Shown piece by piece: positions 24,311 through 37,864 of a DNA stretch of 64,000 bases; positions within the stretch are counted from its first letter, which is position 1; each line of letters begins with the position of its first letter. Source of the stretch: an uncultured Clostridium sp. (GTDB lineage Bacteria; Bacillota; Clostridia; TANB77; CAG-508); assembly GCA_947641575.1 (NCBI GenBank), contig CANRQN010000001.1:46380-110379 (forward strand), in the 5' to 3' direction. The position numbers were made by a program, and so were the translations under genes. A model generated the notes under the pieces. The model was not told where the DNA came from. It worked only from the letters and a program-made list of their open reading frames with translations, and did no database searches.

Positions 24311-26046
24311 GAAGATATGTTTTTACATATTTTTATTTTTTTGTTTTGCTTTAAATGTTATTTTAGATTTTAACATAAAAAACTACATTAAATTACTTAA
24401 TAAGTGTTTTAATAAAGACATTGTTTTAACTACAAATAATTATATACTTATTTGCTTTATAATTGCTCTTATTTCGTTTTTTATTATTATAGACATATTA
24501 CTTGTTGTTTATAAAAAACAAGACAAAATAAAGGGTATAAAAATCAAAAGTGAATACGGAACTTATGGCACTGCTAACTGGATGCAAGAGAATGAAATCA
24601 AACAAGTTTTAGGAATAAATGATGTTCCAGGTATTATATTAGGAAAATACAATTCTGATATTGTAAAACTGCCTTTTAACAGCTATTTTAACAAAAATAT
24701 TTGTGTCTTTGGTAGTAGTCGGTAGCATGAAAACAACTCGGTTTTCTATTAACTAATCTTTTGGAGCTTTCAAAGTATAAAAAGTCTATCATAGTAACTG
24801 ATCCAAAAGGAGAAATTTATCGAACTACTTCCAGCTATTTTAGAAGTATTGGATATAATGTAAAAGTATTAAATTTAAAGGATATGAAACATAGCGATCG
24901 TTGGAATCCTTTGGGAGAAAATGAAACAATAACTGATGTTCAAACATCTAGCAATGTTATTATTTCTAATACTCAAAAACACAATGCTCGGTAAAGATGA
25001 CTTTTGGCCACGAGCTGAAGAAAATCTGTTAAAAGCCTTTGAATTTTACTTTTTAGAAATGCTAATAACAAAAAATAATCTAACTAATATATATAAAAAG
25101 ATTGCAAATCGGTGATATTGGAGAAATAGACAATATTTTTAAAGGACTACCAAATGATAACCCTGCTAAAATGAGCTATAATATCTTTGCAAGTCGGTAG
25201 TGATACTATAAAAGCATCAGTTATTACAGGTTTAGGTACTAGATTACAACCTTTCCAAAATGAAGATTTACAGCGATTAACCTCTGAATCAGATATTGAT
25301 TTAACCGCTCCAGGAAAAGAACCTTGTATTTATTATGTTATAACAAGTGATGTCGACTCTAGCAATGATTTTCTCGCCTCATTATTTTTTACATTTCTTT
25401 TTATAAAACTAGTTAGATATGCAGATTCAAGACCAAATGGTAGGTGTGAAACTGAAGTATATTGTTTTTTAGACGAATTCGCTAACATTCGGTCAAATAC
25501 CTGATTTTAACAAAAAAATATCTACTGTTAGAAGTCGTGGAATTGCTTTAATTCCTATTTTGCAAAACTTAGGTCAATTTCAAAATCGTTATCCTAATCG
25601 GTCTTTCAGATGAAATAATTGGAAACTGCGATAATAGAATTGACATGGGAATTACAGATGTTCTAACTGCGGAGTATTTTTGTTCTCTCATAGGTGTAAC
25701 AAATGTTGAAAGTACCTCTATAAACAAATCAAATTCCATAGAGGGAGACTTAGCAGAATATGGTCAAAAGAATGTATCCTTGCAGCGAAGAAATCTACTA
25801 AATGTCGATGAAATAATGAGAATTCCATCACTCAGGCTAATATTAAACATACGAGGAAATAAACCTTTGTTATTAGATAAAGTAATATATAAAGAGCATC
25901 CTCTGGCAAAAAAGCTAAAAGATAGTCCTGTAAGTGAATATAATCCTAAATGGATTAAAAATATTTCCCAAAAAGTACAAGTAAAAGAAAAAGTTAATAT
26001 AAAAGTTGAAAAAAAAGAAGAAAAAATAGAATGGACTACTTTTTAG
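24282..26046 (+). pseudogene. VirD4/TcpA/FtsK-like type IV coupling protein, split by about seven single-C insertions
   Basis: It has an N-terminal TM segment and a Walker A region, 'VFGSSGSMKTTG', that appears after correction. Frame breaks at about 24716, 24743, 24988, 25118, 25195, 25490 and 25598 are all C before GGT. Confidence 0.65.
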
Positions 26047-26093
26047 TTATATGATATACTTTCAGTAAAATTAAATTTGATGCAAGGAAGGAA

Positions 26094-26333
26094 GTGCAAC
26101 TTATGTCTAAATATTTTGAGGGTTTAGGGCATTGTTCTTTAGATGGAAATTACAATTGGTGTGCTACAATTTTAGAAAATGGTGATGCTTATGCAGGTAG
26201 ACTTGATACATATAATAAAAATGTAACAAAAGTTTCAAAATTAGATGAGCAAAACTATATAATTGAAGTAAATTGTCCTAAATGCCATCGTAGAGAATTT
26301 ATAGAAAAAAATGTTAAAGATTCAAAAGTATAA
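26094..26333 (+). CDS. Small Cys-containing protein (possible zinc-ribbon protein, with CxxC at 'NCPKCHRRE')
   Basis: A 79-aa protein with four Cys/His that may bind zinc. Confidence 0.35.
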   Translation: MQLMSKYFEGLGHCSLDGNYNWCATILENGDAYAGRLDTYNKNVTKVSKLDEQNYIIEVNCPKCHRREFIEKNVKDSKV

Positions 26334-26390
26334 AATTATGATTTCACTTACCTTAAATGGTAAGTGTTTTTTATTATGGAGGTGAAATAG

Positions 26391-27185
26391 TGAACGAACT
26401 AGCAATAAAAGAACTTATGAGAAGTAAAGAAGAAAAACGAATACTGACAAGCAAAATTAGTGGTATAGAAGATGAATATTATAAATATAAAAACGAGAAT
26501 ATATCCTGTGCTATTGTTTGGTATGAAGATATAAAAATACTTATTCCTATTCAAGAGCTAGGTATATCAAAAATAAATAAGTCTATAATCAGAGGCATGC
26601 TGGGTGCAGAAATAGACTTTATTATAATAGAAATAGATACTATATCTAATATAGCAATCGCAAGTAGAAAAGAAGCTATGCAGCTAAGAGCAAAATTAGA
26701 ACTTTCAAAGCTAAAAGCTAATGATATTGTAAAAGTTAGAATAATTGCTGTAGGAATTAAGCATATTTTAGTAGAATTGTATGGAAAAGAAGTAATAATA
26801 AAAGCTAATAACTTACAACACATATTTATAGTTAATTGTAAAGATTATTATACTGTGGGTGAATATTTAAAAGTTAGAATCAAGAAAATAGATATAGAAA
26901 ATAATATATTTGAATTGAATAGCAAAGATTTTATAAAAAATCCATTTAAAGATATTCGAAAATATATCATTGAAAAACGGAGAATATACTGGTAAAGTCA
27001 TTGCTTTTCCAAAAGGTAATAGTGGTGTCATAGTGCAATTAGCTGTAACAGATATTACATGTTTAGTTAGAATACCTGCAAGATTTAATAATTATCCCCA
27101 TTATATGGATAATGTATTAATTCGAATAACTGAAATAAAACAAGAAGAAAAGCTGATATATGGGTATTTAATGAGAGTAATATAG
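26391..27185 (+). CDS. S1 RNA-binding domain protein (two S1-like OB folds). One single-C insertion lies at about 26985.
   Basis: The sequence contains 'GEIVNE..IKEL...' together with 'IVKVRIIAVGIKHILVELYGKEVIIKANNL' and 'GKVIAFPKGNSGVIVQLAVTDITCLVRIPARF'. ORFs 26357.. and 26970.. join when the C in 'aaaaaCggagaat' is removed. Confidence 0.45.
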
Positions 27186-27198
27186 GAGGATTTATTTT

Positions 27199-27675
27199 AT
27201 GATAGATAATTTAAAAATAATAAATTTTATTCAAGATTTTGGGTGTGCTAAGATAGAACAACTGCAAATTATATTTAATGACAATAAAAATACTTTTAAA
27301 TCGATTCTCAGCTCAAATATGGTATCTAAAAAAGGAACTATCATGGTTCATAATACAAAACAAATAAATAATCAAATGCTTATTGCATTAGACATATTAT
27401 GCAAATACAAAGGAAGATTTATAAACTTTCACAAAGGATATGAGCCAGTATTTATTACCTTTATTACAAAAGATAATATAAAATATCATATAATAGTGGC
27501 AAATGAAGATAATGCAAAGGGAGTTGTAAAATTAGTAAACTCTTATCCTTTATCACTTCCAATCGCTGACAAATTAATTTTAGCATTTCCAAATAAGGAA
27601 CAATTAGAAAATATAGAGTGTGATATACCTTTTTTGTATTGTATTTATCCTAGCTTAGATATAGTCAATAACTAG
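27199..27675 (+). CDS. Hypothetical protein (158 aa). It is the last gene of the plus-strand conjugation block.
   Basis: The ORF is clean and carries a GGAGG RBS. Confidence 0.4.
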   Translation: MIDNLKIINFIQDFGCAKIEQLQIIFNDNKNTFKSILSSNMVSKKGTIMVHNTKQINNQMLIALDILCKYKGRFINFHKGYEPVFITFITKDNIKYHIIVANEDNAKGVVKLVNSYPLSLPIADKLILAFPNKEQLENIECDIPFLYCIYPSLDIVNN

Positions 27676-27706
27676 GTTCAAAACACTTAAACTATAATAA
27701 AAAAGC

Positions 27707-27740
27707 AGAAGAATGAGTTTTCACACATCCTTCTGCTTTT
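27707..27740. terminator. Bidirectional hairpin terminator (gcagaag...cttctgc plus T-run) between 27199..27675 and secreted-protein gene A
   Basis: A 7-bp stem flanked by A5 on one side and T4 on the other. Confidence 0.5.
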
Positions 27741-27811
27741 GAGAAGTAAAGTATCTACTGCTTGTTAGTTACTTATTGTTTTTTTATTTCAAATGCTTTT
27801 ATAGTTATTAT

Positions 27812-28300
27812 TTAGTTGTAAGGGTAATCAGTCGCCAAAAGGTAGAACGCATATGGAGCAGTGGAATCTGCCATCCTTATGGTATAATTATATTTACCAG
27901 TAGGAAATTTACCTCCAACAAAGTAAATGGTAAACTGTCCATTAGGATTATCAGTAAATTTTTTTACTACTCCCATATCTTCTGCATCCCCTGTGAGCCC
28001 CAACAGTGTAACAATAATATCTGTGTGCGAATTAACTACCAGCGTGATATACTGTTCGGTAGTTAAAGTAAAGCTTCCAGAGTAAGATGTTTTGCCTGTT
28101 GTGGTATCTCCGTATTGAATCTCTTTGAGATCATAGACGGACTGCGTAGAAGTAGGTGCATTGTTGATTTCCACATTGACAATGCTAACTTCTTCGCCCT
28201 CATTTGTTTCAACCTCAGCTGCTGAAGCAACCATCGTACTGGAAATGAGAACGACAATTGTCAGAGCCATCGCGAGTAACCGTGCGTGCAAAGTTCTCAT
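27812..28300 (-). CDS. Secreted small protein A (signal peptide plus a mature domain of about 130 aa). It is copy 1 of a GC-rich paralogous family.
   Basis: The signal peptide is 'MRTLHARLLAMALTIVVLISSTMVASAAEVE'. Local GC is about 40%, against a window background of about 26%. Confidence 0.6.
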   Translation of the reverse strand: MRTLHARLLAMALTIVVLISSTMVASAAEVETNEGEEVSIVNVEINNAPTSTQSVYDLKEIQYGDTTTGKTSYSGSFTLTTEQYITLVVNSHTDIIVTLLGLTGDAEDMGVVKKFTDNPNGQFTIYFVGGKFPTGKYNYTIRMADSTAPYAFYLLATDYPYN

Positions 28301-28596
28301 AAATATACCTCCATAGTGTTGTGTAGATTCTTTACCTTCTCTATTACAAAAATATCAGCAAAATAGCTAACATTAGTGTAATTAAAAATCCTACTATACT
28401 ATATTAAGCATTTTATATATTATACAATAAAATATATGAGAAAGCAACAAAAGGTTAAAAAAGATATTGAAACGAATTTCATGATTGTAATAATACAAAA
28501 GTAAATTTTCCCTTCTACACAAATATTGTAAATTAATTTTCAAAAATAAGTTTATTCTTTAATTAATTTTTATTACTGTTCTTATTTTATGTAAAA

Positions 28597-28631
28597 ACTA
28601 AAAAAGAACAAGTAGACTTCCTACTTGTTCT
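28597..28631 (-). terminator. Rho-independent terminator of the protease gene
   Basis: The structure is agaacaagtag-acttc-ctacttgttct, followed on the minus strand by a T-run. Confidence 0.55.
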
Positions 28632-28682
28632 TTCAAATGAAACAAATTACTAATTAACTGCAACATTTTAATATCTAAAAAA

Positions 28683-29705
28683 CTAAGGATTAGCTTCATT
28701 CCATTGATTTCTAAGATTAGTAACTAATGTTATAATACGACGATTTGTAATAACAGCTTCTCCATAAGAAGAAAAGTCCGATCTAGTAGTAATTCCTAGC
28801 ATAATGTAATCACTATCTCTCCATACTGGTCCTCCACTGTATCCTTCGAAAAGAAGTGCATTAAACTTAAATGTTATATCGTTTGTTTCAAATATCTTTC
28901 CTCCTGATGCCCATTGGGTTCTACCATTAAATCCATAGTTACCTTGAGAAGGATAACCTGTAGCTGTTACAGAAAATTGTTTCAATTCTTCTGGATCATC
29001 ATAATGTTGAAGACCAAAGTACCCAAGATATTTTCCAATAGGTTGAGTTAATACACAAAGAGCCCAATCATATTGCTTATCCTTATTAATCATATAAGAA
29101 CTAGGGAAATAAATTTGTTCATAATTTGAAGAATATCCTTTATAATTGCCATCATCTATATTCTCGTCGTTTGCATTGCCATTATATCCTGGTCTAAAAA
29201 CAAGATTTTCAAAAGTATACCATTCCTTATCATATTCTAAGAAAGCAACATGAGCTGCTGTTAGCGCTATATTAGGTCCTACTAAGCTAGCCGAGCCACT
29301 AATAGTAGCTGAAACTTTATCAGCTTTCAAATCCCCACTTACTTTACAAGTAGTTCTATAAGGGAAAGCAGAAGTATCTGTCACTTTATTTCCTAAAGCT
29401 GCACGCATGTTGTTGGTAAATGCAAGTTTAGGAGAATATATTGTCTTATATGGATCATATGCATTTAGCTTATATGAGCTTTCTCCATTGCTAGTTTTAT
29501 AAGTAGCAACTACTTGCTCTAATTCTTCCATGTCTACCTCTGTTATTTGCTTTGTTTTAGCATCATACTTCATAATTTTTTCTTCTTCTGGCACTTCTAT
29601 TTCACCTAAACTTACAGCTTTAACCTCTCCGTCAATATTAATTATAAAAAATAAAATGCTTATAAGTATTCCAATAAATACTTTCATCTTTAAATTTTTA
29701 ATCAT
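28683..29705 (-). CDS. Secreted trypsin-like serine protease, glutamyl-endopeptidase (S1B/V8)-like
   Basis: It has a signal peptide and a catalytic triad of His in 'LTAAHVAF', Asp in 'YDWALCVL' and Ser in 'EGYSGGPVW'. Confidence 0.65.
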   Translation of the reverse strand: MIKNLKMKVFIGILISILFFIINIDGEVKAVSLGEIEVPEEEKIMKYDAKTKQITEVDMEELEQVVATYKTSNGESSYKLNAYDPYKTIYSPKLAFTNNMRAALGNKVTDTSAFPYRTTCKVSGDLKADKVSATISGSASLVGPNIALTAAHVAFLEYDKEWYTFENLVFRPGYNGNANDENIDDGNYKGYSSNYEQIYFPSSYMINKDKQYDWALCVLTQPIGKYLGYFGLQHYDDPEELKQFSVTATGYPSQGNYGFNGRTQWASGGKIFETNDITFKFNALLFEGYSGGPVWRDSDYIMLGITTRSDFSSYGEAVITNRRIITLVTNLRNQWNEANP

Positions 29706-29816
29706 TTTATTTCCTCCTTTCCTATTCTATTTATATAATTTATCTATCTAATTGTCAATATTCTTTCGTGGTACTTTTTTTGACTTTTTTAGTACCTTTT
29801 CGACTTTATATATTAT

Positions 29817-30263
29817 TTAGTTACTATTTATAATTTTAATTAATCTAATTCCATGTAATATAGGATTTTTTATTTCAATTTTTCCTGAAACTAAAAGATG
29901 TTCATTTCCTATTTTCGTATTTATTTTTTTTTCTCCCTTATCTTCTTGTTCTTTATATTCAAAATAGATAGTATCTCCTATCTTCAATTCCGAAATATTT
30001 ATTTTTCTTCCTTGATTATTTTGTAATTTTACATCTTTTATTGAAGAAATAGAAAGTACATAACTATCAGCTTCATTCTCGCCATTTCCTTTAACATAAA
30101 TATCATACTTTCCTTCTTCCCCACCCTTATTTATAGATGTAACAATTCCTGTATTATTTAACAATGTTCTATATATATTTTTTCCATAAGCTGACCATAT
30201 AATTATAATAACACTTAATATCAATATAACTACTATTGCTATTTTTTTCATTCTTTCCTCCAA
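29817..30263 (-). CDS. N-terminally membrane-anchored small protein (lipoprotein-like)
   Basis: It has a TM/signal segment 'KKIAIVVILILSVIIIIW'. The probable start is the internal Met at 30251. Confidence 0.4.
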   Translation of the reverse strand: MEERMKKIAIVVILILSVIIIIWSAYGKNIYRTLLNNTGIVTSINKGGEEGKYDIYVKGNGENEADSYVLSISSIKDVKLQNNQGRKINISELKIGDTIYFEYKEQEDKGEKKINTKIGNEHLLVSGKIEIKNPILHGIRLIKIINSN

Positions 30264-30429
30264 AAATACTTATTACTACAGGATAGTTTATCATATTATC
30301 ATAAAATTTTCAAATAAATATTCAAAATAAAAGTAGGAACACTTCAAAAGCATTCCTACCCAATAAGGGGATTCAACAATAGCATATTAACTTAGCTTAA
30401 GTAATACTTTTTTTATTTGTGTGTCACTT

Positions 30430-30906
30430 TCAATTCCACCGTGCAAAAACTGTTACACTTCCTTCAATGCCAGAAGGAGTTATCATAAGATACCATTTGC
30501 CCTCTGGAGGATTTGGTACAGTCCACATTTTGTATTCATTACAGTTTATTGTCCATTCATCGGAGTAGAGTTCTAAATCACTCCCATATAAGGACAATTG
30601 AATTGTTCCTTCAGAGCTATCGCTTGTCGCTAAAACAAAGAATTGATCTGTAAATCCCTCGTATTTAGTCAGTTCCAGCTCTAGTCCTCCAGTTTGTCCT
30701 GCTTCAATGGTAATACTTGCTCCTCTGTTAATATCCGGATCAACATCTGTTGCATTCGCTTTCTCATTGGTAACTTCGTTCAACACAGGGGTTTCTTCTT
30801 TAGCAAAAGCCTGTGTTGGCAACATTACAAAAGTCATTGCGAATACTATCAATGCCATTGCCATCAAGGTCAATGTGCACTTCCAGTTGCTTTTTTTTGC
30901 TTGCAT
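30430..30906 (-). CDS. Secreted small protein B. It is copy 2 of the GC-rich paralogous family.
   Basis: The signal peptide 'KCTLTLMAMALIVFAMTFVMLPTQAFA' resembles those of copies A and C. GC is about 42%. A perfect 13-bp inverted repeat (caataaggggatt, 30361-30373 and 30935-30947) brackets the ORF. Confidence 0.6.
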   Translation of the reverse strand: MQAKKSNWKCTLTLMAMALIVFAMTFVMLPTQAFAKEETPVLNEVTNEKANATDVDPDINRGASITIEAGQTGGLELELTKYEGFTDQFFVLATSDSSEGTIQLSLYGSDLELYSDEWTINCNEYKMWTVPNPPEGKWYLMITPSGIEGSVTVFARWN

Positions 30907-31097
30907 TTTGATACCTCCATTAGTTTGGTAGCAAAATCCCCTTATTGTGAAAAGATGATTACTTAAGCTTAGTCCTTGTATACGCTATCACAAATCAATT
31001 CAAATGTCAAATATCTTTATTTTACTTCAGCAATGAGGAATAAATTTTTTTATTTTTGCCCATTTTATAGATTATCATCATTTTTTATGTTGATTAA

Positions 31098-31185
31098 GTA
31101 GTTATCCACTTTTAACTTCATTTTTTGATGCATTATCCACATTGATATGATATTCCTCTTACACTGCAAGACTTATCCACAGTTT
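31098..31185 (+). repeat. Three direct repeats of a DnaA-box-like nonamer (TTATCCAC[A/T]) in about 90 bp, just beyond the 3' end of the transposase gene
   Basis: They are 'gttatccactttt' at about 31101, 'attatccacattg' at about 31133 and 'cttatccacagtt' at about 31171. Two of them match TTATCCACA exactly. Confidence 0.4.
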
Positions 31186-31189
31186 TTTT

Positions 31190-32610
31190 AGAATTTTATA
31201 TAACTATTTTATTTTTCTTTCGTTTTTTTATTGATTTTTTTCTTTTGTTTGTATATAATTTAACCATAAAATCTTAACTGTATTTTACCATGTACAGCTA
31301 GATTTATTGAGGTTTGAGTAAGTGTTTGTGTGATGGCTGCACTTACTTCTTTTATGCTCATTTTTAACTCTGATACATATTTTAGCCCTTTTTCTAATAG
31401 CTGTCTTATTGTATGTGCAAATTGTATAAAAAAGTAATGTGCTTTCATCGCATTGTAATTTCTTGAATAAATATGCTCTATATCAAATGTCCCGTTCTTC
31501 TGCATATTAAATCCTTCATTTTCAATTTTCCATCTCTGTCTTCCATAATATATTATATCTTCTTTATTTTTCTCTGTTATCTTAAATGACGTAAGCCACA
31601 TAAATTCTATCTTTTCTTCTTTCTTTGTTTCATAGTATTTTATTACATTTGCTTCTTTATCTCTCTTTACTTCATAATATTTTAACTTATTCCAATATTT
31701 TATTTTGCTTTCTTTTTCTGCTTTCTCTAATCCTTCTATTTCTTCTCCTAATGCTTTTAATCTATCTTTCTTAAATCTTAATATATATTCCCATTTATTA
31801 TTCCTACATACTTCCATTACTGGTTCACATGCATACAATGCATCTCCTGATATTATTATTGGCAATTTTGGATATTCCTTTTTTATTCTTTCTGCCATTC
31901 TGTAAAATGCTCTTATTTCACAATCTTGCTTTTCTACATTTTCTTTTTCATTTTCCACAAACTCTGTATCTATACTAATTACTATATCTCCTACTACTAA
32001 CTTTGCCTCTAATACATAATGGTAATATATGCTATATTCATCGTCTTGCCCTTTATTATATGTTCTCTTTAAACAATTTGGACAATGTCTTTCTTTAAAT
32101 GTTGCTAGTCCTGTCCCATCTATCACTATTTGAAAATATTTTCCTTTATATCTATATTTATCAAACATCTTACTTCTTATCAGTCTATTTACCATATATT
32201 TTTGTATTCTTCGTAATTCTTCTATATCAAGTTCTTCAAATATATCGTTAATCGTATCATAGTGTGGGATTTCTTCTATTTCTATTCCTAGCAATTTTCC
32301 TATATTTTCTATTGCTTCCTCTGTATTAAATTTTTCTGTTGTATTTCTCATACTTGTTATTCCACATAACAATCCCATTAGCCTTGTTACTGTTATTACT
32401 GACATTTGATATTCTACATAACTTTGATGTCTTGTATCTGTTAATCTTTCAAACCTTTTTATTAATTCTGGAAAATATTGTTTTATTATTTTTACTACAT
32501 CTGCAAATATATCTATCTCTTTTTTTAATTTTCTTTTTTCTGCTCTGTTCATTTTTTTACTCCTTTGTGATAAATTTCTTTTTTATTTTATCACAAAGGA
32601 GCTCTTTTGG
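31190..32610 (-). mobile_element. IS4-family insertion sequence. The boundaries are approximate and terminal inverted repeats were not identified.
   Basis: It contains a single 430-aa DDE transposase ORF. A 13-bp perfect hairpin (cctttgtgataaa...tttatcacaaagg, 32562-32599) lies in its 5' leader. Confidence 0.4.
31260..32552 (-). CDS. IS4-family DDE transposase
   Basis: The C-terminal 'YGRQRWKIENEGFNMQK' matches the IS4 Y-x2-R-x3-E-x6-K signature. Confidence 0.7.
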   Translation of the reverse strand: MNRAEKRKLKKEIDIFADVVKIIKQYFPELIKRFERLTDTRHQSYVEYQMSVITVTRLMGLLCGITSMRNTTEKFNTEEAIENIGKLLGIEIEEIPHYDTINDIFEELDIEELRRIQKYMVNRLIRSKMFDKYRYKGKYFQIVIDGTGLATFKERHCPNCLKRTYNKGQDDEYSIYYHYVLEAKLVVGDIVISIDTEFVENEKENVEKQDCEIRAFYRMAERIKKEYPKLPIIISGDALYACEPVMEVCRNNKWEYILRFKKDRLKALGEEIEGLEKAEKESKIKYWNKLKYYEVKRDKEANVIKYYETKKEEKIEFMWLTSFKITEKNKEDIIYYGRQRWKIENEGFNMQKNGTFDIEHIYSRNYNAMKAHYFFIQFAHTIRQLLEKGLKYVSELKMSIKEVSAAITQTLTQTSINLAVHGKIQLRFYG

Positions 32611-32706
32611 CTGCTTTTCTTTCTCTTTTTATTGCGAAAAATTTTTATTCCTCAAAGCTGATTTTACTTTAATAAAATATGTCTTATTCTCTCCTATATA
32701 TATCTT

Positions 32707-33036
32707 TTACAAGTTTCTTGCAATATAGTCAATAATATTTAAAAATTTTTCTTTTTTACTATCATCTAACTTTTCAAGTTGTTTATATATTTGCTTAATC
32801 ACAATATCTTCTTCCATTTCTGTTTTAATATCTTTATTATAAATTAGATAGTCCAAACTTAAATTCAATTTATCTGCAATTTCTAAAAATGTACTTAGAC
32901 TTGGCTTTCTCTTTGCAGTTTCAATATTTGACAAAAATGCTGGTGTGATATTTAATTCTTCTGCCAACTCTTCTTGTGTTTTGTTATTTTTTATTCTTGT
33001 TTCTGCAATTCTTTGCCCTATCATATTAAAATCCAT
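32707..33036 (-). CDS. XRE-family HTH transcriptional regulator
   Basis: The HTH is 'KTQEELAEELNITPAFLSNIETAKRKPS'. An AAAGAGG RBS precedes the ATG at 33036. Confidence 0.65.
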   Translation of the reverse strand: MDFNMIGQRIAETRIKNNKTQEELAEELNITPAFLSNIETAKRKPSLSTFLEIADKLNLSLDYLIYNKDIKTEMEEDIVIKQIYKQLEKLDDSKKEKFLNIIDYIARNL

Positions 33037-33183
33037 TATACCAACCTCTTTATTTAAGTTTGTATAATTATATTGCAAATTTTAGTTCTTTTATATAAAC
33101 ACAAAGAATAGTTTTTCTTTCTCATAGCATAGTTTAATAATAAAAAAAATTAACTTTCTATCTTGTAATTTTCTATACAGTTC

Positions 33184-33639
33184 TTACATAAGTAAACCTC
33201 GTTTACATTGATTATATCTTTTTTTTCTACCACAAGCTGCACATTTCTTTTGTGGCTTTAAAATTAAATTCCCATTAAAGTCTATTGAAATTCCTAATTG
33301 CTCTTTTTCTAATATACTTAGAAAAGTTCTGTATTCCATCGGTATAACAATTCTTCCTAATTCATCTACTTTTCTTAATATTCCTTGTGTACGATTTAAT
33401 GCTAGTTTTTCATTCAAATTCCTTAAATCACTATCTTTATTACAAAATATTTCTTCCAGCACATCTAAAGACAGATTAAGTTCTCTTGTTAGCTTAAGTA
33501 TATTTTGTATATTAAGTTTAGAAAAATCATATTCTTTAGTTACTATGCTATTTCCAAGTATATTACTTATTTTATCATTATCTAAATTGTAAAATGCTTT
33601 TATAGTCTCCATTTTTAAATTTACCGTATTCTTATTCAT
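33184..33639 (-). CDS. AbrB/SpoVT (looped-hinge helix) domain regulator with a C-terminal Cys cluster
   Basis: 'LRKVDELGRIVIPMEYRTFLSI' matches the AbrB/MazE swapped-hairpin motif. Confidence 0.5.
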   Translation of the reverse strand: MNKNTVNLKMETIKAFYNLDNDKISNILGNSIVTKEYDFSKLNIQNILKLTRELNLSLDVLEEIFCNKDSDLRNLNEKLALNRTQGILRKVDELGRIVIPMEYRTFLSILEKEQLGISIDFNGNLILKPQKKCAACGRKKRYNQCKRGLLM

Positions 33640-33855
33640 TACTTTTCTCCCTCTTTCTATTAATTTATATTTACTGCATCTTTTATTCGATTCTTCCTCT
33701 TAAGAATTTTAGCTTTTATAACCTATATGACTTTCCCCCTTTCATGAATATTCTCATTATATTTGGGTATATTAATATAGTGTATGATTATATACTATAT
33801 TCGCCAAAAAATATATTATAGTAATCTATATATTATGTCGAGAGGAGAATAAACC

Positions 33856-34128
33856 TTGTTATTATCTGAAGCAATTAGAATAAGAATAAATTACTTTATG
33901 AACAAAAAAGGTTTTTCTTCTTGTTGGGATTTATATAAATCATCAGGTTTACCAAGATCAACCATAAATGCTCTTTTGTCTAGTGAAAGAAATGCACTTC
34001 CTCGTTTATCTACTCTACTTCACATTTGCGAAGGTCTTGATACTAATTTTGTAGAATTTTTTAATGATTCAATCTTCTTAGATGTAGAGGACTTCTCAGA
34101 AGATAATCTTAGGAAGTTAAAGGGCTAA
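33856..34128 (+). CDS. XRE-family HTH protein
   Basis: The HTH is 'LPRSTINALLSSERNALPRLSTLLHICEGL'. Confidence 0.5.
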   Translation: MLLSEAIRIRINYFMNKKGFSSCWDLYKSSGLPRSTINALLSSERNALPRLSTLLHICEGLDTNFVEFFNDSIFLDVEDFSEDNLRKLKG

Positions 34129-34376
34129 TAATATATAAATTATATAATTTATATTATTGTATCATGCTTATTTTAAAAAATTTGTCGAATTTTGTAAAAT
34201 ATTTCCACTTTTTTTCTTTTTTTGTTGTCAAATGTAAAAAAGTTAAAAAGGGCCTTTTTATAAGAGCCTTTTTATATATAAAAAAGTTTCACTTTTTTTA
34301 AATCTTAAGAAAAAATTAAGAATTAGTACTCTATTTTCAAGAATGCTAATTCCTATTTTTGTGTTAAACTTTTCGG

Positions 34377-35106
34377 TTATTCGGTCCAGCCACCATCTAT
34401 TTTTATAACTTCTCCAGTTATATATTCATGATTTGTAAGCATATATACACAATTTGCTACATCTTTTGGTGTCCCAATTCTTTTAAGTGGTATCTCATTT
34501 TTTATTTTTTCTTCTTCAGCTTTTGATAATTCATTATTCATTTCTGTGTCAATATATCCAGGTGCAATCGCATTTACTCTAATATTTGAAGGTCCAACTT
34601 CTTTCGCTAATGCTTTTGTAAAGCCTATTATTCCGTGCTTTTGTACTAGAATATAATACTTCGCAAGAAGCTCCTATTATTCCCCATACAGAAGATATAT
34701 TTATTATTACACCTGATTTATTGTGTATCATATTAAGCAAAACCTCTTGTGTTACATAGAAAATTGATTTTAAATTAACATCAAGCATATTATCTATATC
34801 TTTATCTGTAATATCTGTAAACATTTTTATCTGCGATATTCCAGCATTATTTACAAGTATATCTATTTTTTTATATTTTCCTAATACATAATCTACCATT
34901 TGTTTTATTTCATTTTTCTTTGTAACATCTGCCTTAAATATATCAATTTCTATTCCCTCTGCTTGAAGTTCTTGTCTTAATTCTTTTGCTTTTCCCTCTG
35001 ATTTATTATAATTTGCAACTACAATTATTCCTTCTCTTGCGAACTTTTTTGCTATTTCTTTACCAATACCTCGTGATGCTCCTGTAATTATTGCTACTTT
35101 TAACAT
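34377..35106 (-). CDS. SDR-family oxidoreductase, a paralog of 5283..6011 at about 70% amino-acid identity. It is broken by one single-C insertion near 34655.
   Basis: It is collinear with the first SDR through 'SCEVLYSSTKA'. The frame is lost at minus-strand 'gcaCggaat'. Removing the C restores '...GIIGFTKALAKEVGPSNIRVNAIAPGYIDTEM...GGWTE*'. Confidence 0.7.
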
Positions 35107-35451
35107 AAAAATCTCCTAATTATATAATAATGTTATATTATATCACAAAATACGATAAATTTAACCTCAATACTTCCTTTACTGTATTATAATACAGATA
35201 TCTGTTAAAAAGTTTAATTTTTTACTTTAAATAGTAGACTTTTTGATATTATAAAAAAATATTACCCCATTATTTTTGTCTTTTTTTATCTTTTGCTTGA
35301 TTTCCCTGTGAAATATATAGTATAATACAGAAGTTATATACTTAATACAGTATATTCATAATATTTTAATTACACTGATGTTGGTTATATTCTGACATCT
35401 TTGTAATAGAGATGGAAAGTGCCTATACAAACAGCTTCAGGAGGTATTACT

Positions 35452-35913
35452 ATGAAGAATGTCAAGCGGCTTTTTACCCTTCTCATGGCTTTGACCATGG
35501 TTCTGTCCTGCACTGCGGTGGCTTCGGCCGCTGAACTCCCGGAGAATGACGACGTATCCGTTGTCCAGGAGATTGCCAGTATCGACGATGGCATTATGCC
35601 TTTGTCTATTGAGTATCTCGTCCGAGAGAATGGCATGATCAACAGAGGCGCCACCAAGACCTACACCTCAAATACTGTCCAGCAGACTGAAGACGTCTGG
35701 CTGTTCTTTAATTGCGACAAGCTTTGTCGTATTGAGGTTTATGTTAAGGCTGGTTGGCAGTCTGCCCTTCTGTATTCTACGGATGTGGAAGGTGGCGGCT
35801 CTATTTCCAGGGGAATTACCGCAACGCTCCCCAAAGGGGCAAAGATTCAGGCCAAGATTATTGGCAAAGAAGACAACTGCTCTTACAGTGTAACCCTGCG
35901 TGGAAGCTATTAA
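35452..35913 (+). CDS. Secreted small protein C. It is copy 3 of the GC-rich family, at about 50% GC.
   Basis: An AGGAGG RBS precedes the start. The signal peptide 'MKNVKRLFTLLMALTMVLSCTAVASAAELPE' closely resembles that of copy A. It has a very GC-rich codon usage that is foreign to the host. Confidence 0.65.
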   Translation: MKNVKRLFTLLMALTMVLSCTAVASAAELPENDDVSVVQEIASIDDGIMPLSIEYLVRENGMINRGATKTYTSNTVQQTEDVWLFFNCDKLCRIEVYVKAGWQSALLYSTDVEGGGSISRGITATLPKGAKIQAKIIGKEDNCSYSVTLRGSY

Positions 35914-35972
35914 GCTTCTAAGAACTTCTTATTAGGTAATTAACACTTAACTTCTAGGCACTTCCATCTCCT

Positions 35973-36004
35973 AAAAACGGATGCATTAAATTGCATCCGT
36001 TTTT
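35973..36004 (+). terminator. Rho-independent terminator (aaaaacggatgcatt-aaa-ttgcatccgttttt)
   Basis: A perfect 12-bp stem followed by T5. Confidence 0.7.
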
Positions 36005-36101
36005 AGTTATATATTTGACTTTCATTCATTTCTATTGTCTTCTACCTCTAAGTTATACTTATTTGAGCATTTGTCATGTATAAGTTTTAATTAAGATATT
36101 A

Positions 36102-36971
36102 CTAAAATAATATCTCAATATATAATTCGTCTTTTATATATTTAGCTGTAATCATTCCTTCATTCATTTCTACTAGCTGCTTTGCTATTGAAAGTCCGAG
36201 TCCAGAATACTTTTTTATATTTTCTACAGTATAATATCTCTCAAAAATCCTTTTTACTGTTATTACATCTAATTTGCTCGCTTTATTTGAAAAAGATATT
36301 TTTCCATCTTCTTTTAGGGTAATATTGCAATTACTATCACTATATTTAATAGCATTTGATATTATATTTTCAAAAACTCTAATTATCATATCTTTATCAA
36401 TATTTCTGTATATCTTTTTCTCACATATACTAATATTAGGCTCTACTTTTTTGTCTTTAAATGAATTATATAGGCTCGCTATTGTTTCTTCTAAAATGTC
36501 ATTTACACAACATTTTTCTTTCTTTATTTTTCTTTCTAGGTCTAATCCTATACTTAAATCTCTTAGTTGTTCTGCAAGAACTGTTAATTCCTTTGTTTTA
36601 TTTTTTATTATTTTTACATACTCTTTTTTATTTAAGTCTTCTTCTTCCAATAATTCAATATATCCACTAATAGCTGTAAGTGGTGTCCTTAAATCATGTG
36701 AAATATCAGTTACAAGTCTTTTTAACTCCTGATTTCCATTTTCATATTGTAATTTTTGTTTTCTAAGTTTCTTTAATTCTATATTTAAGCTATTTGCTAA
36801 AGCCTTTATTTCTCTATCATTACTAGATACTGTTATTAAATTATTTGTATCTATTTGTATAATTCTATGTAGTGATTTTTGTATTTCATTTATTGTTTTT
36901 CTAAGTAGTATTAACTTTAATGATAATGCTACTATTATTAAAGTTAGTATTCCATATATATAAATACTCAT
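36102..36971 (-). CDS. Sensor histidine kinase (HisKA plus HATPase_c)
   Basis: H-box 'ISHDLRTPLTAISGYIELL', an N-terminal TM segment, and G-boxes 'GLGLSIAKQLVE'. Confidence 0.8.
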   Translation of the reverse strand: MSIYIYGILTLIIVALSLKLILLRKTINEIQKSLHRIIQIDTNNLITVSSNDREIKALANSLNIELKKLRKQKLQYENGNQELKRLVTDISHDLRTPLTAISGYIELLEEEDLNKKEYVKIIKNKTKELTVLAEQLRDLSIGLDLERKIKKEKCCVNDILEETIASLYNSFKDKKVEPNISICEKKIYRNIDKDMIIRVFENIISNAIKYSDSNCNITLKEDGKISFSNKASKLDVITVKRIFERYYTVENIKKYSGLGLSIAKQLVEMNEGMITAKYIKDELYIEILF

Positions 36972-37003
36972 AATAAATATGCTCCTATTTTAGCTCTTTC
37001 CTA

Positions 37004-37864
37004 TTAAATAACACTATTCCTGATAAAGTAAATATTGTTATAACACCGTATAGAACATAAAAGTAGTATAGTATTATTGTAATCTCTTCTATTTTCTACA
37101 TCTTGGTCTGGTGCTAATTTATTTAAAAGCATTGTAGCTTGTCCTGCTGGCATAATATAAAGGATATTTTTATACTCTTTTGCTTTCTTTTCTCCTGGAA
37201 ATCTAATATTTACACTCATTATTTCTTTTTCTATAATTTCATCACCCCTACTAGTTGTTGCATAATAATATTGTGGTTCATTTACTTTTTCTATTAAGTA
37301 AAAACTTGTTGCTATCATTATAACAACTAAAATTAACCCAATTGCTGTTGATAAATTTATATCAGAACATATTAATGGTATAAATGTAAAAATAGCAGCA
37401 TATTCAATTGTAACCATTATTATATCAAATATAATAATCATAAATTCACTCATACTAATTTTAGTTTCAAACCCTCCGTATAATAGGTATTCCAACTATT
37501 GTGGCAAATATTAAATATACTACTTCTATAATGATACTAACCGTAATATTAATCATCAAATTTGATAAATATATTTTTGTTCTAGATTTGCCGAACTACT
37601 ATCTTATTTCTAATAGCACCGCCCAGAATATTCTGCTCCTGTAAATAGTGTTGCAAATATTACTATTAAAAATGCTATAATATTTATATTTCCTACTAAC
37701 ACTGTTTCTAAATTTTCTATTAAAGTATTATTTCCTTTTTTTGCAACACCAATCATAAGTATTGCGATTAAAAGTGTTACTACTATTATTATAAAAAACA
37801 TTTTAGATTTACTCAATTTAAACATTCCTAGACTTAGTAAATTATACATTGTTTCCACCTCCAA
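37004..37864 (-). CDS. ABC-2-type permease, split into three frames by single-C insertions
   Basis: It has six TM helices. The pieces join after removing the C's in minus-strand 'gggCggtgc', 'gttCggcaa', 'ataCggagg' and 'ataCggtgt'. Confidence 0.55.

Follow-up and report, generated by a model that had tools for sequence, protein, structure and literature searches.

Few bacterial mRNAs are known in which the untranslated regions (UTRs) at the 5' and 3' ends pair with each other, namely hld/RNAIII, icaR, hbs and hilD, and each of these was established by experiments in one species. In the Bacillus subtilis hbs mRNA a 14-nt interaction between the two UTRs, with an energy of -19 kcal/mol, lies just past a 5' hairpin and just before the terminator (Braun, Durand and Condon 2017, PMC5737220), and this pairing reduces cleavage of the leader by RNase Y (PMC5737220; review PMC7821165); the hbs 3' UTR is reported not to be conserved in close relatives (PMC7821165). 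In Staphylococcus aureus icaR, pairing of a 3' motif with the Shine-Dalgarno sequence (SD) prevents initiation and generates a site for RNase III (Ruiz de los Mozos 2013, PMC3868564). Whether the 5'/3'-UTR mechanism extends to other genes needs investigation, according to a 2021 review (PMC7821165). Here we analyse three short genes, which we refer to as cassettes A, B and C, in 64,000 nucleotides of DNA from an uncultured Clostridium sp. (contig CANRQN010000001.1, positions 46,380 to 110,379; this whole stretch is the window, in whose numbering coordinates are given). Each gene is bracketed by an inverted repeat, and we put at about 0.6 the probability that the halves of each repeat pair within a single mRNA as a conserved long-range RNA helix, which would stabilise the full-length message in the manner of hbs. 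A first-pass annotation of the window had drawn attention to the repeats and knew of no described system with their layout, but the hbs mRNA of B. subtilis has it (PMC5737220).

Results

Inverted repeats around three short genes

The window has a G+C content of ~26%, and between 27.7 and 36.0 kb it contains three short open reading frames (ORFs) that start with a signal peptide, match no Pfam family and have pairwise identities of 23-25%: those of cassette A (27812-28300, minus strand, 162 aa), cassette B (30430-30906, minus strand, 158 aa) and cassette C (35452-35913, plus strand, 153 aa, with its ATG at 35452). Local alignment of the upstream flank of each ORF with the reverse complement of its downstream flank reproduces all three inverted-repeat pairs that the first-pass annotation had described, within one base of where it had put them. 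In cassette C, GAGATGGAAAGTGCCTA at 35409-35425 is matched by TAGGCACTTCCATCTC at 35955-35970 over 16 bp with one bulged A; the pair itself stands, whereas its start had been set one base early, at 35408. The perfect 13-mer of cassette B lies exactly where reported, at 30361-30373 and 30935-30947, and B has a second, longer pair that had been missed, at 30390-30413 and 30950-30973 (24 nt, 20 bp). The cassette A pair, at 27741-27758 and 28323-28341, forms 17 bp with one bulge and one A.A mismatch. Arm-arm duplexes are predicted to comprise 13-20 bp at -17.3 to -25.5 kcal/mol, the values being 17 bp and -17.3 kcal/mol for A, 16 bp and -24.8 kcal/mol for C and, in B, 20 bp and -17.7 kcal/mol for the longer helix (helix X) and 13 perfect bp and -18.1 kcal/mol for the helix made by the 13-mer (helix Y).

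We compared these flanks with those of every ORF of at least 100 aa in the window (n=65), using Smith-Waterman alignment of 100 nt upstream against the reverse complement of 100 nt downstream. The three cassettes score 27, 31 and 28 and rank 4th, 2nd and 3rd of the 65 (mean 18.1, standard deviation 4.4), and among 1500 random segment pairs with the same spacing the fractions reaching those scores are 0.011, 0.0013 and 0.0067, respectively. The sole higher scorer, ORF 37004-37453, owes its rank to an A+T-only match inside the neighbouring coding sequence and does not share the architecture of the cassettes. Its A+T-rich 18-nt inverted repeat (36933-36950 and 37534-37551) has one arm within the neighbouring kinase gene, and because of this we judged it a chance match and not a comparable unit. 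The inverted repeats are real and more than chance: alignment reproduces them, and in the ranking of ORFs comparable pairs are not as frequent around random ORFs, the two points on which the first-pass annotation had considered its proposal vulnerable.

Relatives of the cassettes and covariation of the arms

When A, B and C were used as queries, word-indexed protein searches yielded hardly anything but near-identical sequences, and an exhaustive phmmer search was needed. With A as the query it gave only 13 clusters among 1.84 billion representatives, all of 131-167 aa, so that the family is a rare one. Five members found in this way have complete flanks and show the same arrangement of leader hairpin, arms and terminator; a sixth lies on a contig that ends just after the stop codon, so that the 3' arm region is beyond the contig end. 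A search with the leader only, which is independent of the ORF, added three more cassettes, two in a Clostridia metagenome-assembled genome (MAG) and one in a metagenome. The leader-pattern scans, which covered genomes, metagenomes and viral sequences, returned mostly chance sites (five raw matches were on viral contigs), the true matches being loci L034, L036/L048 and L071. Further units with the conserved leader, for which the first-pass annotation had suggested looking, thus exist and have the same arm and terminator arrangement. Together the leader-pattern and protein searches yielded 9 further distinct cassettes complete on both sides, each with its 5' arm directly behind the hairpin and the partner arm directly ahead of the terminator. 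All ORFs recovered by the leader and protein searches fall in one protein family; what recurs is therefore one gene family whose UTRs are conserved and, as far as the recovered sequences indicate, not a portable frame for unrelated genes. A protein search with B found no diverged B orthologue in which helix X or Y could be checked.

Two diverged orthologues of C (70% and 80% protein identity) occupy the same locus, adjoining the same histidine kinase gene. Synonymous divergence between C and the 70% orthologue is 0.77 over the whole ORF and 0.94 over the mature part, near saturation, and hardly any change separates C from its diverged orthologues in the leader core, the two arms and the terminator. 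Where the arms of the C orthologues differ, both sides have changed (U-A to G-C, a shifted bulge, a G.U pair), and every variant keeps the 16-bp helix.

We aligned 12 distinct cassettes by hand, using real bases only, with N opposite bulges and an artificial spacer between the arms; a plain MAFFT alignment put the arm bulges in the wrong register, and the N-padded hand alignments were used in its place. Across the 12 cassettes 99.0% of the cells of the 14-17 bp helix are paired, and 8 of 20 pairs (16 cells) have changed on both sides. The covariation score is 0.234 as against 0.102 in shuffles and was reached by none of 500 of them, and sliding the register by 1-3 columns leaves only 37-53% of cells paired; an alignment of seven cassettes gives the same picture. 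The non-Watson-Crick cells, read on the sense strand, are four G.U, one A.C and one A.A. With pairing retained at the eight positions that have changed on both sides, the family offers a natural counterpart of compensatory mutagenesis. Folding of full transcripts (~680-760 nt) with ViennaRNA, a check that had been proposed in the first-pass annotation and that is independent of any alignment, places the helix in the minimum-energy structure of all eight cassettes folded, with a mean pairing probability of 0.73-1.00. The idea that the 5' UTR pairs with the 3' UTR and closes the ORF in an RNA panhandle is thus supported by the position of the arms inside one predicted unit, by the predicted folds and by the compensatory changes across the 12 cassettes.

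Layout of the transcription units

The order of elements throughout the family is a sigma-70-type promoter, a conserved 15-bp leader hairpin, a purine-rich 5' arm, the SD and ORF, a pyrimidine-rich 3' arm and an intrinsic terminator. Both arms lie on the coding strand between a consensus-like promoter and the intrinsic terminator, the transcript ends being predicted. The 5' arm begins 1-2 nt after the 15-bp hairpin, whose 3' strand, TGTAAT, directly precedes it, and the 3' arm leaves 0-10 nt to the terminator stem in A, in C and in 10 other cassettes. Between the end of the 5' arm and the SD there are 10-14 nt in A and C, and the 3' arm begins at least 16 nt past the stop codon. The RNAalifold consensus of seven cassettes gives the leader hairpin 15 pairs; at two of these both partners have changed, and U-A/U.G exchanges, read on the sense strand, are numerous.

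The 5' regions of A and C align end to end, from a TTGnTT-17/18 nt-TATAAT promoter through a conserved block and the ATTACAC...TGTAAT hairpin to an outer half-arm GAGAnGG(n)AAAG; TTTGTAATAG is also common to both leaders. The inner half-arms (AAUCUAC/GUAGAU in A, GUGCCUA/UAGGCAC in C) differ in sequence and keep their complementarity. The earlier statement that the repeat sequences differ between copies consequently fails for the A and C arms as a whole, which are homologous with a common outer half, and holds for the inner half, which has diverged yet remains complementary. In most cassettes a conserved block, CTTAATAyAGTAyA, stands between the predicted -10 element and the leader hairpin (window 35334-35368; 28383-28415, minus strand; upstream regions of L081-L086), and it may be an operator or a 5'-terminal stem. 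A comparison of 26-38 kb with Rfam, at E values up to 1, found no family.

On the minus strand, the predicted sigma-70-type promoter of cassette A (TTGCTT, 17 nt, TATAAT; 28419-28447) is homologous in position to the C promoter and to consensus-like promoters in L071 and L082-L088. The conserved leader hairpin (28343-28382) is identified by pattern match and by the RNAalifold consensus, and 1-2 nt past it is the 5' arm, GAGAAGGUAAAGAAUCUAC (28323-28341), defined by alignment; the minimum-energy fold pairs 17 of its 19 nucleotides with the 3' arm (pairing probability, P, 0.88). The SD GGAGGT (28307-28312) and the ORF, which encodes a signal peptide and a beta-sandwich domain, span 27812-28312; the 3' arm, GUAGAUACUUUACUUCUC (27741-27758; alignment, folding and duplex energy), abuts the intrinsic terminator (27701-27740), in which 18-nt arms, 89% complementary, enclose a 4-nt loop and precede a T run. 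Cassette C, on the plus strand, has a predicted sigma-70-type promoter (TTGATT, 18 nt, TATAAT; 35297-35326) that is kept in the 70-80% orthologues, the conserved leader hairpin (35369-35407; flagged stem 35377-35399), the 5' arm GAGAUGGAAAGUGCCUA (35409-35425; P 0.93), whose pairing is kept in orthologues by changes in both arms, the SD GGAGGT (35440-35445) and ORF (together 35440-35913) and the 3' arm UAGGCACUUCCAUCUC (35955-35970), which abuts an intrinsic terminator with a perfect 15-bp stem (35971-36006).

Cassette B, on the minus strand, encodes the most divergent member of the protein family. The 5' arm of its long helix X, ACUAAGCUUAAGUAAUCAUCUUUU (30950-30973), has a position homologous to that of the A and C arms and is paired in the minimum-energy fold (P 0.73); the 5' arm of helix Y, CAAUAAGGGGAUU (30935-30947), is the 13-mer described above and forms a perfect 13 bp that cross helix X. 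The SD GGAGGT (30913-30918) and ORF (together 30430-30918) are followed by the 3' arm of helix X (30390-30413; alignment and folding) and by that of helix Y, AAUCCCCUUAUUG (30361-30373), which abuts the intrinsic terminator (30331-30361; 14 pairs and a T-rich tail), so that in B it is helix Y that lies next to the terminator. The B 3' arm contains UCCCCUU, and its partner AAGGGGA is 29-41 nt upstream of the start, away from the SD. All three terminators are where the first-pass annotation had put them. We also considered an anti-terminator in which the 3' arm would pair with the ascending terminator strand; reading by eye gave only alternatives of ~5 bp, and we rejected it.

Base composition, genomic setting and proteins

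The three coding regions have a G+C content of 40-49% and a G+C content at third codon positions (GC3) of 0.34-0.57, compared with a GC3 of 0.12-0.23 in neighbouring genes; the fractions are 0.41 overall and 0.37 at third positions for the A ORF and 0.49 and 0.57 for the C ORF. The leaders have a G+C fraction of 0.23-0.28 as against 0.40-0.49 in the ORFs, and leaders and trailers are A+T-rich like the rest of the window. The description of the cassettes as GC-rich is therefore right for the ORFs and wrong for the arms, which sit in A+T-rich UTRs. Cassette C is a real coding gene, with a ratio of nonsynonymous to synonymous divergence (dN/dS) of 0.18-0.50. Its 70% orthologue (L025, 179-640) keeps a GC3 of 0.45 though the adjoining kinase gene has a GC3 of 0.13, and the G+C bias has therefore outlasted a dS of about 0.8. 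In L034 the A homologue lacks a high G+C content (GC3 0.26). We looked for selection for G+C in polarised synonymous changes on the C and L032 branches and dropped the idea, the counts being too small and pointing in opposite directions. In the comparison with L025, the evolutionary rate of C is about double that of the histidine kinase gene beside it (36102-36971), with a dN of 0.23 versus 0.09 and a dS of 0.77 versus 0.45, while the signal-peptide codons and UTR core of C are far more conserved (signal dS 0.30, mature dS 0.94).

The host region is a conjugative element with many insertion sequence (IS) insertions, carrying fragments of a TraG/VirD4-type coupling protein, DUF5697, PcfJ, a CHC2 primase and a SpaA-type surface protein. 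Many metagenome assemblies contain identical copies of the element region, and the element is carried in the runs SRR12959809, SRR30905882 and SRR35270336 and in the reads behind the ERZ134104xx assemblies; when 26000-37000 was compared by megablast with collections of plasmids and phages, nothing matched. An extra ~2.6 kb of DNA (window 32553-35300) separates the IS transposase gene (31260-32552) from cassette C, and in other contigs with an identical C protein, for example L001, the spacing from IS transposase to C is ~280 bp. This extra DNA contains an Xre-type helix-turn-helix (HTH) gene, a MazE/AbrB-like gene, another HTH gene and a short-chain dehydrogenase gene (34377-35106, minus strand) that is broken into two ORFs of 54 and 175 aa; a similarly split dehydrogenase (85 and 173 aa; L082/L083, 352-1147) lies upstream of a paralogous cassette on unrelated contigs. 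Three DnaA-box-like motifs stand on one strand within 80 bp (31102-31181, plus strand), with the IS end on one side and the region upstream of cassette B on the other: TTATCCACT, TTATCCACA and TTATCCACA, the latter two being the only perfect copies in the 64-kb window. In other copies of the element (L017, L018, L023 and L024) an IS with a 506-aa DDE transposase is inserted just upstream of the cassette A promoter, ~300 bp before the A ATG, and in L019 (1690-2967) a group II intron reverse transcriptase gene lies just downstream of the cassette A terminator. The cassette flanks seem to be insertion hot spots.

The family consists of ~150-aa beta-sandwich proteins with a signal peptide (ORFs of 146-167 aa), and a literature search found no description of it. 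An AlphaFold2 model of A, built on a 16-sequence family alignment, is an eight-stranded beta-sandwich with a predicted local distance difference test (pLDDT) score >90 across the domain, and its best solved structural match is the ColG collagen-binding / pre-peptidase C-terminal (PPC) domain, at a marginal E value of ~1e-3. Most family members have a conserved Pro-Arg (or Lys) closing a disordered N-terminal linker, a possible site of propeptide cleavage. Found repeatedly in the neighbourhood are genes for FtsX/ABC transporters, for two-component systems and for a trypsin-like protease; the trypsin-like serine protease gene adjoins an A-type cassette both in the window (28683-29705, minus strand) and in the Clostridia MAG (L034, 6499-7533).

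Discussion

The repeats around these genes exist, exceed chance, are conserved by covariation and are predicted to form a helix in full transcripts. In the mechanism that we propose, each gene of the family would be transcribed from its own sigma-70-type promoter, the leader would fold into the conserved 15-bp hairpin and a purine-rich stretch of 15-19 nt past this hairpin would pair with a pyrimidine-rich stretch ~500-560 nt downstream. Because the arms are placed beside the hairpin and the terminator, the leader hairpin, closing helix and terminator would meet at one junction, with the ORF as a closed loop; and because both arms are outside the translated region, translating ribosomes should not melt the helix, a placement that would fit a structure persisting on translated mRNA. 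By analogy with B. subtilis hbs, the helix most probably covers a single-stranded A/U-rich leader segment beside the hairpin and in this way would limit entry of RNase Y and then attack by the 5'-exonuclease RNase J, which would stabilise the full-length message. It is the match in layout with hbs, the single case of it characterised in a Firmicute, where pairing lowers cleavage of the leader by RNase Y, that leads us to take the repeats as an hbs-like closing helix, and we infer the transcript ends, the pairing in vivo and the stabilising effect.

Several points weigh against this explanation. The alignment was fitted to the helix and its sequences are related, so that the covariation figures show consistency and are not a calibrated probability: the 99.0% pairing leans towards structure because the hand alignment was made to fit the helix, with bulges entered as N, and given the kinship of many members the shuffle counts are not probabilities. 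Complementary DNA repeats kept by recombination would also covary, and the 4:1 ratio of G.U to A.C is weak. Promoters, transcription starts and 3' ends are all predictions, and the stabilising role is assigned by analogy, while the same duplex could equally be a target of RNase III, as in icaR. Cassette B, moreover, is without the conserved leader hairpin, and its leader alone has no significant fold (z = 0.47). Its two helices, in the RNA order X1 Y1 ... X2 Y2, cross; they could therefore form jointly only as a pseudoknot, and nested folding cannot evaluate both and shows X only.

One alternative to a stabilising closing helix is that the same helix serves as a double-strand-specific RNase III site; cutting of the 14-20 bp duplex would trim off the leader hairpin and terminator, as in an rRNA processing stalk, or trigger decay and lower expression, as in icaR. 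RNase III sites often have bulges at variable positions, the cassette helix exists and is conserved, and its length and energy are within the substrate range; the icaR 5'/3' duplex, furthermore, serves RNase III as a substrate (PMC7821165). Cleavage and protection are indistinguishable from the sequence, but most of the duplexes are shorter than two helical turns, and placement by a 5' hairpin and a terminator is closer to the protective hbs helix than to icaR, whose 3' motif covers the SD, and we consider an RNase III site unlikely, though by no means far-fetched. A translational switch, in which an anti-SD-like 3' arm that could otherwise silence the message by pairing with the SD is sequestered by the 5' arm as a decoy, or the reverse under some condition, strikes us as distinctly improbable. 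Its appeal lies in the CU-rich 3' arms (CUUUCCUCUC, CAUCUCC) and SD-like purine runs of the 5' arms, in the ability of AUCUCCU of C to pair with AGGAGGU, in the resemblance of UCCCCUU in the B 3' arm to the icaR UCCCC motif and in the repression of B. subtilis mRNAs by anti-SD-like sequences hundreds of nucleotides from the ribosome-binding site (PMC12697547). The inner half-arms that covary (GUGCCUA, AAUCUAC, GCCCAC) nevertheless bear no relation to the SD, so that what is selected is pairing between the arms. In A no part of the 3' arm matches the SD well, the arms overlap the SD in no cassette (28323 versus 28307-28312 in A, 35425 versus 35440-35445 in C, 30935-30973 versus 30913-30918 in B), and predicted extensions of the duplex onto the SD are no better than those of shuffles; the anti-SD or decoy idea is not general across the members.

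That the repeats act at the level of DNA, either as recombination sites that, with promoter and terminator fixed on either side, invert or excise the ~600-bp ORF segment in the manner of an inverton or as terminal repeats like those of miniature inverted-repeat transposable elements (MITEs) or attC sites, was raised by the first-pass annotation, and we now regard it as very improbable. The repeats do enclose the ORF and leave promoter and terminator outside, the surrounding conjugative element is rich in IS copies, and repeats exchanged by recombination would stay complementary too. However, in the fetched contigs 47 of 47 leaders are followed by the SD and ATG in the normal orientation and no leader-to-terminator deletion junction of the kind expected from an excised cassette was found, in both cases among assemblies, minority orientations in reads being possible. 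Orthologues diverged to 70% identity share both the locus and the histidine kinase neighbour. No direct duplications flank the arms in the window, and no empty variants or shared terminal repeats were found. Bulge positions vary between orthologues, which a helix tolerates and a recombinase site would not, and G.U outnumbers A.C. Conserved sequence (the hairpin, TTTGTAATA and the terminator) continues outside both arms, which are therefore not the ends of an element. Neither boundary has a GTTRRRY core, each cassette has its own promoter, and no serine or tyrosine recombinase domain was seen among the ORFs scanned near the cassettes, in a window annotation that is not exhaustive. The proposal of an excisable or invertible cassette is thus not supported, and a false lead is removed: no novel type of mobile cassette is delimited by the repeats. 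That stretches of A+T-rich intergenic DNA are complementary here by chance, for which it can be said that the unrelated ORF 37004-37453 scores as high by an A+T-only match, has practically no probability left: three independent hits at p ~0.01 or lower have a very small joint probability, all have the same position relative to hairpin and terminator, and the compensatory changes that keep the helix in 12 cassettes from separate samples already refute it.

If the repeats are indeed a closing helix, a bolder proposal can be made, which we hold tentatively and think rather doubtful: that the helix is an mRNA 'clamp' that has co-evolved with its gene family and would be the first ORF-spanning bacterial mRNA structure with covariation support, that together with coding sequence of unusually high G+C content in very A+T-rich hosts it may give exceptionally nuclease-resistant messages for secreted beta-sandwich proteins, and that the crossing helices of B may form an ORF-spanning pseudoknot. 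Natural compensatory mutations in a gene family are comparative evidence that closure of an mRNA across its ORF can be selected, and the cassettes supply natural pairs of 'mutant' and 'compensatory mutant'.

Among known arrangements, invertons, MITEs and attC cassettes also have inverted repeats around a short DNA segment, whereas the cassettes described here are without orientation variants, target duplications, shared terminal repeats or core sites and have arms internal to the transcription unit; unlike an integron cassette, they have their own promoters and arms split across the ORF in place of one attC site (no integrase search was made). In hok-type and other type I toxin mRNAs, pairing of the 5' and 3' ends closes the entire molecule, and covariation in that family conserves this pairing, but toxin ORFs are <60 aa, have an antisense RNA and are activated by 3' trimming, while the cassettes have ORFs of 146-167 aa for beta-sandwich proteins with signal peptides, and no antisense partner was seen. 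The flanking sequences of a long functional RNA likewise pair into a closing stem in the processing stalks of rRNA operons; those stems are longer, flank non-coding rRNA and are cleaved by RNase III in maturation. With icaR the cassettes share intramolecular pairing of 3' and 5' UTRs in a Firmicute and a pyrimidine-rich 3' motif (UCCCCUU in B), and they differ in that the arms end at least 10 nt upstream of the SD in A and C, the icaR motif being on the SD itself. The closest likeness in layout is to hbs, also a Firmicute mRNA for a small protein with both arms outside the ORF, the 5' segment just past a 5' hairpin and the 3' segment just before an intrinsic terminator, and with 14 bp at -19 kcal/mol compared with a predicted 13-20 bp at -17 to -25.5 kcal/mol in the cassettes. 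There is no sequence homology between the two, masking of an RNase Y site was shown for hbs and is proposed for the cassettes by analogy, and in cassette B two helices cross. Elements of this kind are known from hbs, and the present instance is non-homologous; hbs is a single housekeeping gene, whereas the cassettes are an accessory family of secreted-protein genes, and what they add is covariation support across the whole family.

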